Shown here: one piece after another, positions 29,166-30,401 of the stretch
How the letters are laid out: every line of letters starts with the position of its first letter
Numbering within the stretch: the first letter of the stretch is position 1
Source: Alphaproteobacteria bacterium
Lineage (GTDB): Bacteria > Pseudomonadota > Alphaproteobacteria > Micavibrionales > SZUA-601
Reading direction: 5' to 3'
Length of the DNA stretch: 42,611 bases
NCBI GenBank assembly: GCA_964231155.1
Contig: CAXRKA010000083.1
Coordinates: 1 to 42,611, forward strand
Translations under genes and position numbers: made by a program
Notes under the pieces: model-generated
What the model saw: the letters and a program-made list of their open reading frames with translations, nothing else
The model's database searches: none
What the model was told of the DNA's origin: nothing

Positions 29166-30401
29166 TTACTCAAATATAGGTTCAGCTGGTAACCATTCTG
29201 CCTGAAGTGCATCCAAATCTCCACCCTCTTTGATACAACGACGCACATCACTGAGAAGCGTTTGCATCGCAGCAATATTGTGCTGGGTGAGCAACTGCAT
29301 GCCAAGGAGCTCACCCGCCTTAAAGAGGTGGTGAATATAAGCACGTGAAAATTCAGATGTGTAACACTTTAGATCCGCCATAATGGGACGATCATCATTT
29401 TTATATTTTGCATTGTTAATGTTGATACGCTCAGCGGAGTGGCCTTTCACCAAGGCATGACCGTGACGTGCCAGACGTGTTGGGTGGACACAATCAAATG
29501 TATCGACACCAAGTTTTACACCCTCAAAAATATCGAGTATATGGGCATAACCCAAGAGATGAATAGGGCGCCCCTCAGGAGCAATCTCCGTACACCAACG
29601 TGTAATTTTGAATAGATCGTCTTTACCCTTACCCATCGATCCACCAATGGCCGTTCCAAAAAATGGGCGATCCTTAAGATACTGAATGGATATCTCGCGT
29701 AGGTCCTTGAAATGCGCACCCTGGATAACACCATACATCGCCTGTGTATTGTCGTGGTGTTTGGCAAATTCTTGTAAAGAACGATCTCCCCAACGCATAG
29801 ATCGCTCAACACCTTCGGCCGTATAAGATTTGGAATCTTTATAAGCCGTACATTCATCCAATTGTACAATCAAATCCGCGCCTAACTTGCGCTGAACTTG
29901 AATAGAAATTTCAGGAGACAGAAGCAGCTTTTGACCGCCTTTATAGGATCGAAAATATGCGCCTTCTTCTGTGATTTTAAGGAGTGACTTTTCTTTTGTG
30001 GACAAAGACTGGCCACCGGTATCTTTAGCCACAGAACCATGCTGCATGGCAAAGATCTGATAGCCGCCTGAGTCTGTCAGCATCGGGCCATCCCAGCCTG
30101 TAAACTTATGAAGGCCGCCCATCTGTTCAACCAAATCAGCACCCGGTTGAATCATCATATGATAGGTGTTGGCCAAGATGATTTGTGTGCCCACCTCTTT
30201 AACCTGTCTTGGGCTTGCGGCTTTAACGGCCGCCTTAGTGCCACAAACAATATAATTGGGGGTTTCAACAATGCCGTGAGGGGTGACAATTTCCCCACAA
30301 CGGGCCATAGATTTATCATCTGTCGCAGTGATTTTAAAATCAAAGTTATTGTAGGTGATATCTGGAATACTCATGCCCAACACGATAGGCATATTTGGCA
30401 T
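29166..30401 (-). CDS. tgt: tRNA-guanine transglycosylase homologue (divergent)
   Basis: Carries GIVETPNY, ILANTYHMMIQPG, GPMLTDSGGYQIF, QLDECT, SMRW, GVIQG, TFDCVHPTR, FSRAYIHHL and TQHNIA, all colinear with bacterial Tgt. It deviates at the zinc site and in the substrate pocket (see findings). Confidence 0.8.
   Translation of the reverse strand: MPNMPIVLGMSIPDITYNNFDFKITATDDKSMARCGEIVTPHGIVETPNYIVCGTKAAVKAASPRQVKEVGTQIILANTYHMMIQPGADLVEQMGGLHKFTGWDGPMLTDSGGYQIFAMQHGSVAKDTGGQSLSTKEKSLLKITEEGAYFRSYKGGQKLLLSPEISIQVQRKLGADLIVQLDECTAYKDSKSYTAEGVERSMRWGDRSLQEFAKHHDNTQAMYGVIQGAHFKDLREISIQYLKDRPFFGTAIGGSMGKGKDDLFKITRWCTEIAPEGRPIHLLGYAHILDIFEGVKLGVDTFDCVHPTRLARHGHALVKGHSAERININNAKYKNDDRPIMADLKCYTSEFSRAYIHHLFKAGELLGMQLLTQHNIAAMQTLLSDVRRCIKEGGDLDALQAEWLPAEPIFE

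Follow-up and report, generated by a model that had tools for sequence, protein, structure and literature searches.

Bacterial tRNA-guanine transglycosylase (Tgt; EC 2.4.2.29), a textbook zinc enzyme and drug target that places the queuosine precursor in tRNA, is typified by the Zymomonas mobilis and Escherichia coli enzymes, which are coupled to QueA and QueG. In Z. mobilis TGT, room for the preQ1 aminomethyl group is provided by Glu235 and by a peptide switch at Leu231/Ala232. Human QTRT1 combines a GGLSGGE loop with a zinc site, forms a heterodimer with QTRT2, and carries no insert; its TGT fold and catalytic aspartates recur in the protein described here. Mutagenesis in E. coli has tied the Cys158-equivalent residue to preQ1 recognition, and this position is occupied by Val in QTRT1 (PMC3074131) and by Leu in chlamydial-type enzymes (PMC12301720). 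The Tgt zinc site has been called 'absolutely conserved' (PMC3074131), and a queuine signature, GG[LS][AS]G, has been published (PMC11570991). A chlamydial-type or 'bacterial-like' class, attributed to Manna and Harman 2016 as cited in PMC12301720, comprises the Chlamydia trachomatis TGT and the BL-TGT of algae and protists; the C. trachomatis enzyme is cited in PMC11570991 as using queuine. For Chloropicon and Galdieria, a mitochondrial salvage pathway consisting of BL-TGT, QueA, QueG, and YhhQ has been proposed (PMC12301720).

The window analyzed here is the whole 42,611-nucleotide stretch of contig CAXRKA010000083.1 (assembly GCA_964231155.1), from an alphaproteobacterium of the order Micavibrionales. 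Its genome is 1.43 Mb and 78% complete, and a whole-genome search returned a single TGT-family gene, that of the window, with no second, canonical tgt in this 78%-complete assembly. The features of the gene are as follows, with Z. mobilis numbering given for equivalent residues.

29166..30401, minus strand: tgt, tRNA-guanine(34) transglycosylase, a 411 aa ORF and the sole TGT-family gene in the genome
30072..30074, minus strand: Asp110, equivalent to Asp102 (general acid/base, in TDSGGYQ), by alignments; invariant in the 70-sequence alignment A1
29991..30044, minus strand: 18-residue class-specific insertion QHGSVAKDTGGQSLSTKE, residues 120-137, opposite a gap in Z. mobilis in three alignments; pLDDT 64-75
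29850..29858, minus strand: Asp182-Glu183-Cys184, equivalent by alignment to the base-binding Asp156 and to Cys158, the preQ1-selective Cys being kept
29610..29645, minus strand: substrate loop GGSMGKGKDDLF, residues 253-264, in place of GGLAVGEGQDEMF; one residue shorter, Glu235 replaced by Lys, model pLDDT 79
29544..29561, minus strand: HLLGYA, residues 281-286, in place of YLMGVG by alignments; the His at the Tyr258 position defines the class
29493..29495, minus strand: Asp303, equivalent to the nucleophile Asp280 (TFDCV), by alignments; invariant in A1
29349..29381, minus strand: what survives of the zinc motif CxCxxC, reading MADLKCYTSEF (residues 341-351), with Cys346 as its one remaining cysteine and LCSH as the ligand string; pLDDT is 95-98 without metal
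29280..29282, minus strand: His374, equivalent to the fourth zinc ligand His349 and retained, by alignment and ligand string

The protein was aligned to Z. mobilis TGT with HMMER, by BLOSUM62 pairwise alignment, and by profile-profile comparison with hhalign; all three were concordant, and 14 known anchor residues fell on a single offset in the Z. mobilis numbering reconstructed here. The pairwise alignment gave 44% identity over 351 columns. The sequence scored 385.1 bits against TIGR00430, the bacterial Tgt equivalog model (cut-off 306.75), and 384.7 bits against PF01702 (cut-off 26.3), and its HMMER match to bacterial Tgt (300 bits) exceeded that to human QTRT1 (228.8 bits). An AF2 model (pLDDT 91.2) has the TIM barrel and C-terminal helical subdomain of the family and superimposes on Z. 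mobilis TGT in Foldseek with a target-normalised TM of 0.93 and an rmsd of 1.6-1.9 A (about 1.7 A). Sequencing noise is not the source of the LxCY(T/A)S remnant of the zinc site or of the GGSMGK loop, since both recur in the nearest relatives: P0002 (79% identity) and the Tgts of genomes G003 and G006.

All of the catalytic, guanine-face, and tRNA-contact residues checked by HMMER and pairwise alignments are conserved, in agreement with the first-pass annotation, which had recognized a real Tgt with intact catalysis. In addition to Asp110, Asp182, Cys184, and Asp303, the protein keeps Tyr106 (Y114), Gln203 (Q227), Gly230 (G254), and Arg286/289 (R309/R312), as well as the aromatic dimer-interface positions (F351, Y355, and H358), and its catalytic residues do not vary in any of 70 homologues, which range down to 54% identity. 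What the window's enzyme shares with canonical Tgt is thus its fold, the catalytic Asp pair, Asp156, Cys158, Gln203, Gly230, and Arg286/289; it differs from canonical Tgt in lacking the Cys3 ligands, in its shorter loop, in the replacement of Glu235 by Lys, Tyr258 by His, and Met260 by Leu, and in the 18-residue insert after Tyr106.

The first-pass annotation had read these differences from a by-eye alignment; the three methods confirm them and restore neither the zinc cysteines nor LAVGE. In the substrate loop, all three aligners convert GGLAVGEG to GGSMGKG with Leu231 deleted, M256 at the Val233 position, and K258 at the Glu235 position; this equivalence, drawn from sequence and profile alignment, is at odds with the ungapped reading in PMC12301720. 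The change and shortening of the loop and the replacement of YLMGVG by HLLGYA (Tyr258 to H281, Met260 to L283, Val262 to Y285, and Gly263 to A286) therefore stand as first described. The parallel drawn with the Val233 change of queuine-using enzymes is not supported, the aligners placing Met rather than Gly or a gap at this position. The insertion has the expected length of 18 residues, and its position is narrower than the GGYQI-LSPE interval initially given, as it starts directly after DSGGYQIFAM.

The pocket had also been described as remodelled in this particular protein, a view that the wider comparison does not bear out. The insertion is present in 120/120 best homologues, and the alternative to the GGLAVGE loop and YLMGVG occurs in 122 of 177 sampled sequences, a sample enriched for relatives. 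These 122 sequences, termed H-type for the His at the Tyr258 position, have a median insert length of 18 (0 in the 55 canonical sequences) and a loop of 12 residues in 99 cases, compared with 13 residues in 52 of the 55 canonical sequences. The insert, the short loop, and His258 are class-level traits rather than private remodelling of the window's gene. The class also includes the chlamydial and eukaryotic "bacterial-like" TGTs, so the link to chlamydial Tgt drawn at the outset was apt: an insert of 18 residues at the same position, a 12-residue GGS[LMV]GK loop, and a HLLGIG-type pocket are shared with Chlamydiota Tgt, and GGSMGK itself is found in several Chlamydiales. The two groups nevertheless differ in that the chlamydial-type enzymes have DEL(P)P, with Leu for Cys158, and FDSS (DEL and (F/Y)DSS in 18/18), together with an intact CxCxxC and genomes without QueA (18/18), whereas the window's enzyme has DECTA and FDCV, has lost its zinc cysteines, and comes from a genome with QueA and QueG. 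H-type and canonical labels cluster strongly (5 changes versus 47 expected). In a more careful tree, the chlamydial sequences form a clade of 8 (support 100/99), and the window's Tgt falls in a separate clade of 40 rows (support 100/95), an alphaproteobacterial branch of the class that keeps Cys158 and FDCV. A clean split into an H-type and a canonical clade was rejected, as the careful tree nests the canonical sequences next to chlamydial-type rows and certain other H-type ones; either H-type is a grade or its rooting is unclear, and no claim of monophyly is made.

The zinc site was correctly described as degenerate in the first-pass annotation, with one of three cysteines and the His remaining: in three alignments, Cys318 corresponds to L344, Cys320 to C346, and Cys323 to T348 or S349 according to where the gap is set, and the conserved SRAYIHHL dimer-interface helix follows the remnant. 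The ligands of the window's Tgt thus read LCSH in place of Cys3His. The expectation that a Tgt without structural zinc would be unusual was not borne out, because zinc-ligand loss is recurrent, being found in 24 of 123 cluster representatives (about 20%), as well as in cultured Rhizobium, Brucella, Bradyrhizobium, and Devosia, and is the rule among the cultured Hyphomicrobiales genera inspected. Hyphomicrobiales Tgts (Rhizobium, Mesorhizobium, Brucella, Bradyrhizobium, Devosia, and Methylobacterium) resemble the window's enzyme in having lost zinc ligands naturally in an otherwise intact Tgt, with the motif reading S-x-C-P-A-x-R-D-Y or S-T-W-P-A-x-R and His349 often replaced by Asn, Ile, or Ala; elsewhere they are canonical, with GGLAVGE, YLMGVG, and no insert. 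Their loss of the zinc ligands is independent of that in the window's order. Because 24 of the 123 representatives and the Hyphomicrobiales Tgts lack the site, Zn(Cys3His) is not truly defining for bacterial Tgt, and the description of its ligands as 'absolutely conserved' is wrong, as shown by the window's gene, by the order to which it belongs, and by those cultured Hyphomicrobiales that were inspected.

Genes acting downstream of Tgt were located elsewhere in the genome, namely QueA (contig C174, 5197-6339; E 5.8e-104) and QueG (contig C44, 2681-3670; 444.8 bits), both with intact frames, so this is not a genome with tgt as its only queuosine gene. QueA was always accompanied by QueG or QueH among 26 genomes of the order, with no exception. 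Genes for the substrate tRNAs tRNA-Asp(GTC) and tRNA-Tyr(GTA) are present. Neither QueC nor QueF was found in the 78%-complete genome; QueF is missing from all 9 family relatives as well, and for QueC the genome and the 9 relatives gave only sub-threshold or partial matches (N-terminal PP-loop region). A complete de novo preQ1 pathway had been named at the outset as a finding that would argue against altered base specificity; none is present in the organism's own genome, and the downstream preQ1-dependent steps are. Among importers, QueT was not found in the 78%-complete genome, nor was YhhQ in a PF02592 search or by tblastn with the relatives' YhhQ, although 7 of the 9 family relatives encode YhhQ; the gidB-parA site, where one relative carries yhhQ, lacks it here. 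The gene set follows the same logic as that of Chloropicon and Galdieria, an insertion-type Tgt with QueA and QueG in the absence of preQ1 synthesis, which implies preQ1 salvage. The Chloropicon and Galdieria enzyme is eukaryotic, organellar, of chlamydial-type descent, and has Leu at the Cys158 position, whereas the window's is bacterial, keeps the Cys, and has no zinc site; YhhQ is seen here only in relatives.

The reading that we favor, with a probability of roughly 60%, is that the gene product works without metal as a transglycosylase on G34 of tRNA and inserts preQ1 obtained by salvage, with queuine use possible only as a side activity. It would belong to the alphaproteobacterial branch of the H-type, insertion-bearing class and be functional as a tRNA-guanine(34) transglycosylase. 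[quoted passage not shown] This base would be preQ1 taken up from outside, import being required because a cell with no QueC or QueF could not make preQ1. QueA would then convert preQ1-tRNA to epoxyqueuosine-tRNA, from which QueG would produce queuosine. The C-terminal subdomain is predicted to fold without the Cys3His zinc, and the site may have been lost in steps during the history of the order, passing from three Cys (the G016 type) through two (the G004 type) to the single Cys of the window's Tgt. Such an enzyme is plausible by analogy with the inspected Hyphomicrobiales genera that lack the ligands, other members of Hyphomicrobiales having working Tgts: the Bartonella henselae bTGT complements E. 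coli (PMC11570991), and Sinorhizobium meliloti is reported to need Q biosynthesis (PMC3568095). In favor of preQ1 stand the retained Cys184, the intact QueA and QueG, the YhhQ importers of family relatives, and the order relative G017, described below. The outcome for the organism would be an ordinary one, that of a small-genome bacterium scavenging preQ1 and finishing queuosine itself. Counting against preQ1 are the remodelled Leu231/Ala232 switch and Glu235 position, the failure to find YhhQ, QueT, or Qng1 in the 78%-complete assembly and, for a pure preQ1 reading, the membership of C. trachomatis TGT in the same class and the co-occurrence of Qng1 with QueA in the family relative G001, through which queuine may also be used.

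One alternative is a dual-substrate enzyme, whose remodelled pocket would take preQ1, for later processing by QueA and QueG, and also queuine (inserted directly), the cell using whichever 7-deazaguanine it scavenges. This is possible but rather unlikely. It would fit the class shared with chlamydial Tgt, cited as queuine-using in PMC11570991, and the same source indicates through B. henselae bTGT that such use can occur. In the window's own order, moreover, three tgt-only genomes with Qng1 (G016, G021, and G022) carry the same Tgt class, and a member of the same family (G001) has Qng1 together with QueA, QueH, and YhhQ. However, Cys158 is kept, as opposed to Leu or Val in queuine-type enzymes (PMC12301720; PMC3074131), Qng1 was not found in the 78%-complete assembly, the aligners place a bulky Met at the Val233 position, and GGSMG does not fit the queuine signature. 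A dedicated queuine transglycosylase, as in Chlamydia and eukaryotes, is very unlikely even though the missing GGLAVGE, the shortened loop, and the insertion-bearing class all point that way. Queuine specificity, proposed in the first-pass annotation, would deprive QueA and QueG of their substrate, since both work on preQ1-tRNA alone, yet both are intact here and QueA with QueG or QueH is conserved across the family. Chlamydial-type genomes have QueA in 0/18 cases, so the lifestyle looks different, and the window's Tgt lies outside their clade and keeps Cys158 and FDCV; furthermore, an order relative (G017) with QueC, QueF, QueA, and QueH, and hence a full de novo pathway, has a zinc-cysteine-free Tgt with the same GGSMGKG loop.

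A further alternative, which we consider doubtful, is that a metal is still bound by reduced or altered ligands: Cys346 and His374, assisted by water or by carboxylates, for example those of Asp343 and Glu350. Its attraction is that the His is kept in every zinc-cysteine-free or cysteine-poor Tgt of the order, that Cys346 is conserved in the organism's own genus and sister genus, and that in P0121, the closest representative at 50% clustering, the motif is replaced by the His-rich PGHHHEHTSHY, a sign that metal sites of another kind can arise. Order members closely related to the organism with no motif Cys at all (NVSH, ANSH, and SFSH) in an otherwise unchanged protein argue against it, as does the frequent loss of the His in Hyphomicrobiales; the confident modelling of the region without metal is weak evidence because AF2 ignores metals. 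Highly improbable is a gene in decay or an enzyme with a different nucleic-acid target, whether DNA, as for DpdA, or some other RNA. This idea, part of which was raised early on, draws solely on the unusual pocket and insert. The protein scored only 19.9 bits against the DpdA profile NF041059 (cut-off 200) and 107.4 bits against the archaeal TgtA (G15, preQ0) profile TIGR00432 (cut-off 350), the locus is flanked by hemB, a GNAT gene, and rpsT with no dpd-like neighbours, and the gene is the sole Tgt of a genome that keeps QueA and QueG, with the catalytic invariance noted above.

In this order, a single Tgt class goes with either of two gene sets for queuosine salvage, Qng1 by itself or QueA together with QueG/H, which makes it unsafe to annotate a chlamydial-type pocket as meaning queuine; Cys158 and the presence of QueA should be added to the annotation rule. 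Loop motif and QueA were perfectly associated in 23 genomes (13/13 versus 0/10), an association for which no significance can be claimed because the tree gives only 1-2 independent contrasts. As a general rule for QueA, the loop motif was rejected, since GGSMGK also occurs in QueA-less Chlamydiales. A more speculative proposal, which we hold to be unlikely, is that the insertion-type Tgt switched bases several times within this one order, with the loop encoding the switch and stepwise zinc decay running alongside, the window's Tgt then being a metal-free user of preQ1 and queuine. Under this proposal, genomes with Qng1 and no QueA, the putative queuine users, have loops of the form GG[SC]LGx, and those with QueA and QueG/QueH, the putative preQ1 users, have GG[SY][MF]GK. 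If true, the order would be a natural series for mapping Tgt specificity determinants and zinc-site replacement. As it stands, the order spans three-, two-, one-, and no-Cys forms, a graded natural series for learning what replaces the metal.

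The gene of interest encodes a Tgt homolog, in which a profile search placed the Pfam TGT match at residues 33–404 (384.7 bits). The protein scored 385.1 bits against TIGR00430, above the cut-off of 306.75 for the bacterial Tgt equivalog; identity as an archaeal TgtA (107, cut-off 350) or a DpdA (19.9, cut-off 200) was rejected. No other TGT-family match was found in its genome, assembled as 1.43 Mb on 187 contigs (estimated completeness 78%), which belongs to an uncultured alphaproteobacterium with a small genome. The closest public relatives carry the labels 'uncultured Bdellovibrionales' and 'Pseudobdellovibrionaceae', ranks under which NCBI places Micavibrio, and the organism may thus be related to Micavibrio. 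The gene belongs to a co-directional string of rpsT, a GNAT gene, tgt, hemB, an ORF without a Pfam match, a TGS1-like methyltransferase gene, and upp; no queuosine genes were found among these neighbors from rpsT to upp. In this string, tgt is followed two genes downstream by the TGS1-like gene and the adjoining 246-aa ORF.

29166–30401, minus strand: tgt, 411-residue ORF
27355–28095, minus strand: 246-aa ORF without a Pfam match, adjoining the TGS1-like methyltransferase gene
26705–27343, minus strand: TGS1-like RNA cap guanine-N2 methyltransferase (PF09445, 83.7 bits)

Searching PDB sequences with HMMER returned Z. mobilis TGT as the top match (E 2.6e-88), with human QTRT1 ranked below it (228.8 bits). 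The Z. mobilis sequence was reconstructed from the HMMER output, and a single numbering offset fits 14 published anchor residues. Pairwise alignment gave 44% identity over 351 columns. The two enzymes share D110 (Asp102 in Z. mobilis), Y114 (Tyr106), D182 (Asp156), C184 (Cys158), Q227 (Gln203), G254 (Gly230), D303 (Asp280), and R309 and R312 (Arg286/289), and the dimer-interface aromatics F351, Y355, and H358 and the fourth zinc ligand, H374 (His349), are also kept. The sole surviving zinc cysteine is C346 (Cys320), with L344 at Cys318 and T348 or S349 at Cys323. GGLAVGEG reads GGSMGKG, one residue shorter, YLMGVG reads HLLGYA, and an 18-residue insert (residues 120–137) directly follows DSGGYQIFAM. 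HMMER, BLOSUM62 pairwise, and hhalign profile-profile alignments agree on a predicted loop placement in which Leu231 is deleted, M256 falls at Val233, and K258 at Glu235; an ungapped reading for related enzymes, unlike this placement, puts Gly at Val233 (PMC12301720). The first-pass annotation had described this combination of kept catalytic residues, altered zinc site, loop, and pocket, and an insert, and the same three methods bear it out, restoring neither three Cys nor a LAVGE loop. The AlphaFold2 model it had proposed, built from 70 homologs, has a pLDDT of 91.2 (95–98 in the former zinc region, 79 in the loop, 64–75 in the insert) and matches Z. mobilis TGT with a TM of 0.93 and an rmsd of ~1.7 Å (Foldseek).

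The pocket and insert are traits of a class. All of the 120 best homologs, which are from uncultured Alphaproteobacteria and 55–79% identical, carry the insert, a 12-residue loop (GGCLGGS/GGSLGGS/GGSMGKG), and HxLG(I/Y)G. For a wider survey, the best 150 representatives of 50%-identity clusters were scanned, giving a sample total of 177 sequences. His was found at the Tyr258 position in 122 of the 177 (His-type; median insert 18 residues, loop of 12 in 99/122) and Tyr in 55 (canonical type; median insert 0, loop of 13 in 52/55). These labels cluster strongly on the tree (5 changes versus 47 in shuffles). His-type members include Tgts of Chlamydiota, Dependentiae, and some intracellular Gammaproteobacteria, as well as eukaryotic proteins of Euglena, Salpingoeca, and Hepatocystis. 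Because the class with insert, short loop, and His258 holds the Chlamydiota Tgts, the likeness to chlamydial Tgt drawn at first pass was apt. According to the passage of PMC12301720 that cites Manna and Harman 2016, the class is their 'chlamydial' or 'bacterial-like' TGT group, and a quotation of Yuan et al. 2019 in PMC11570991 attributes direct queuine insertion to the C. trachomatis TGT of this group.

Judged by motifs and phylogeny, the window's Tgt is nevertheless not strictly chlamydial-type. Chlamydial-type Tgts (n = 18) have DEL(P)P, with Leu at Cys158 (noted also in PMC12301720), FDSS, an intact CxCxxC, and GGS[LVM]GK, whereas the window's Tgt and its order retain DEC(T) and FDCV. In an IQ-TREE phylogeny (LG+C20, 69 rows), the window's Tgt groups with its own family (11 rows, support 100/100), and this group is nested within a clade, supported at 100/95, that comprises 40 alphaproteobacterial His-type rows. 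The Tgts of the chlamydial clade (100/99) are placed on the opposite side, next to the canonical type, and monophyly of the His-type is therefore not claimed. QueA was found in none of the 18 chlamydial-type genomes.

Loss of the Tgt zinc site is recurrent. The CCCH ligand set (Cys318/Cys320/Cys323/His349 positions) is missing in 24 of 123 full-length cluster representatives, 12 of them canonical type (12/54), including a Devosia cluster. In Tgt loci of cultured Rhizobium, Mesorhizobium, Brucella, Bradyrhizobium, Methylobacterium, Nitrobacter, Methylosinus, and others the motif is S-x-C-P-A-x-R-D-Y or S-T-W-P-A-x-R, with His349 mostly replaced by Asn, Ile, or Ala; Caenispirillum and Paracoccus Tgts retain CCCH. 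Of the zinc cysteines, two or three are gone from the canonical Tgts of cultured Hyphomicrobiales (loci L125–L197; the first six genera named here and Devosia), in most cases together with the His, which runs counter to the published 'absolute conservation' of the zinc ligands (PMC3074131). Published work on two species outside the inspected loci shows that Hyphomicrobiales include organisms with a demonstrably working Tgt: E. coli can be complemented with the bTGT of B. henselae (PMC11570991), and Q biosynthesis is needed by S. meliloti (PMC3568095). Within the window's order the loss forms a graded natural series, a point of modest wider interest: CCCH in two other families (f7, f8), CCEH in most of the window's family (f1), LCSH in its genus and sister genus, and QCSH, SFSH, ANSH, or NVSH elsewhere, with His349 kept in every Tgt. 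The nearest 50%-identity cluster representative, P0121, has a His-rich PGHHHEHTSHY in place of CxCxxC (ligand string HHTH), which may be an alternative metal site.

Besides the window's own genome, the family searches covered 25 relatives from its order; in the own genome they identified two queuosine genes.

Contig C174, 5197–6339: QueA
Contig C44, 2681–3670: QueG

QueF, YhhQ, QueT, and Qng1 were not found in this 78%-complete assembly, nor was QueC, for which the only match was a 21-bit PP-loop hit. The first-pass annotation had suggested altered base specificity, possibly for queuine, and a genome check; this functional reading is borne out only in part: no de novo preQ1 pathway was found in the assembly, but QueA and QueG are present and, with Cys158, point to preQ1. 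At a probability of roughly 60%, the window's Tgt is a working, probably metal-free member of an insertion-bearing class that would transfer scavenged preQ1 into tRNA, the preQ1-tRNA then being converted to queuosine by QueA and QueG in turn. The strongest evidence for preQ1 insertion is the retention of QueA with QueG, as QueA acts on preQ1-tRNA (pathway summary, PMC11570991). The kept Cys158 agrees with it; with the equivalent Cys145 of E. coli mutated, the Km for preQ1 is 55- to 2460-fold higher (PMC3074131). Queuine may be used as a side activity, since G001, a relative in the same family, encodes Qng1 alongside QueA, QueH, and YhhQ. Qng1 (Q_salvage, PF10343) is a mostly eukaryotic queuine-releasing enzyme, and was found in none of 14 control genomes.

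The own-genome QueA (contig C174, 5092–6354) is ~420 residues long, versus ~345 in most relatives, with lower model scores; the sister genus matches it in length (G003 and G006, with open frames of 421 and 397 aa), and the extra length may reflect a lineage-specific insertion or extension. In the relative G007, yhhQ sits between gidB and parA, and it is absent from the syntenic site on contig C127 of the incomplete own assembly. On the same contig, a 432-residue ORF with no assigned function (1415–2710) lies between gidA and gidB.

Among nine same-family relatives, QueF was found in none and QueC only as sub-threshold or partial matches. QueA is present in eight, the exception being the 64%-complete G002, and all eight also have QueG or QueH; YhhQ occurs in seven, with one to four genes each. 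Across the 26 genomes of the order, QueA and QueG/QueH co-occur without exception. Families f6, f7, and f8 have tgt without QueA, QueG/H, YhhQ, or QueC, and without QueF above cut-off (sub-threshold only in G016 and G022). Three f7/f8 genomes (G016, G021, G022) combine this tgt-only set with Qng1, as would be expected of genomes that salvage queuine directly. That a single Tgt class goes with two distinct sets of salvage genes inside one order is again a modest wider point. The loop reads GG[SY][MF]GK in 13/13 QueA-positive genomes and GG[SC]LG followed by non-Lys in 9/10 QueA-negative ones (exception G015, ADCLGN). This association is a lead, not a rule: the independent contrasts available from the tree number just one or two, and GGSMGK is found in Chlamydiales without QueA as well. 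G017 encodes QueC, QueF, QueA, and QueH with a Tgt that has no zinc cysteine and a GGSMGKG loop like the window's. G010 (96% complete) has eight Vut_1/YhhQ paralogs, QueA, and QueH, with only a 39-residue TGT-model fragment (locus L029), its tgt being either broken, missing, or at a contig edge. In the complete genomes G019 and G025, QueC adjoins QueF without QueA, QueG, QueH, or YhhQ, and the Tgts (loci L010 and L012) have no zinc cysteines and a GGCLGGS loop; tRNA modification in them might end at preQ1, or preQ0/preQ1 may have a different use.
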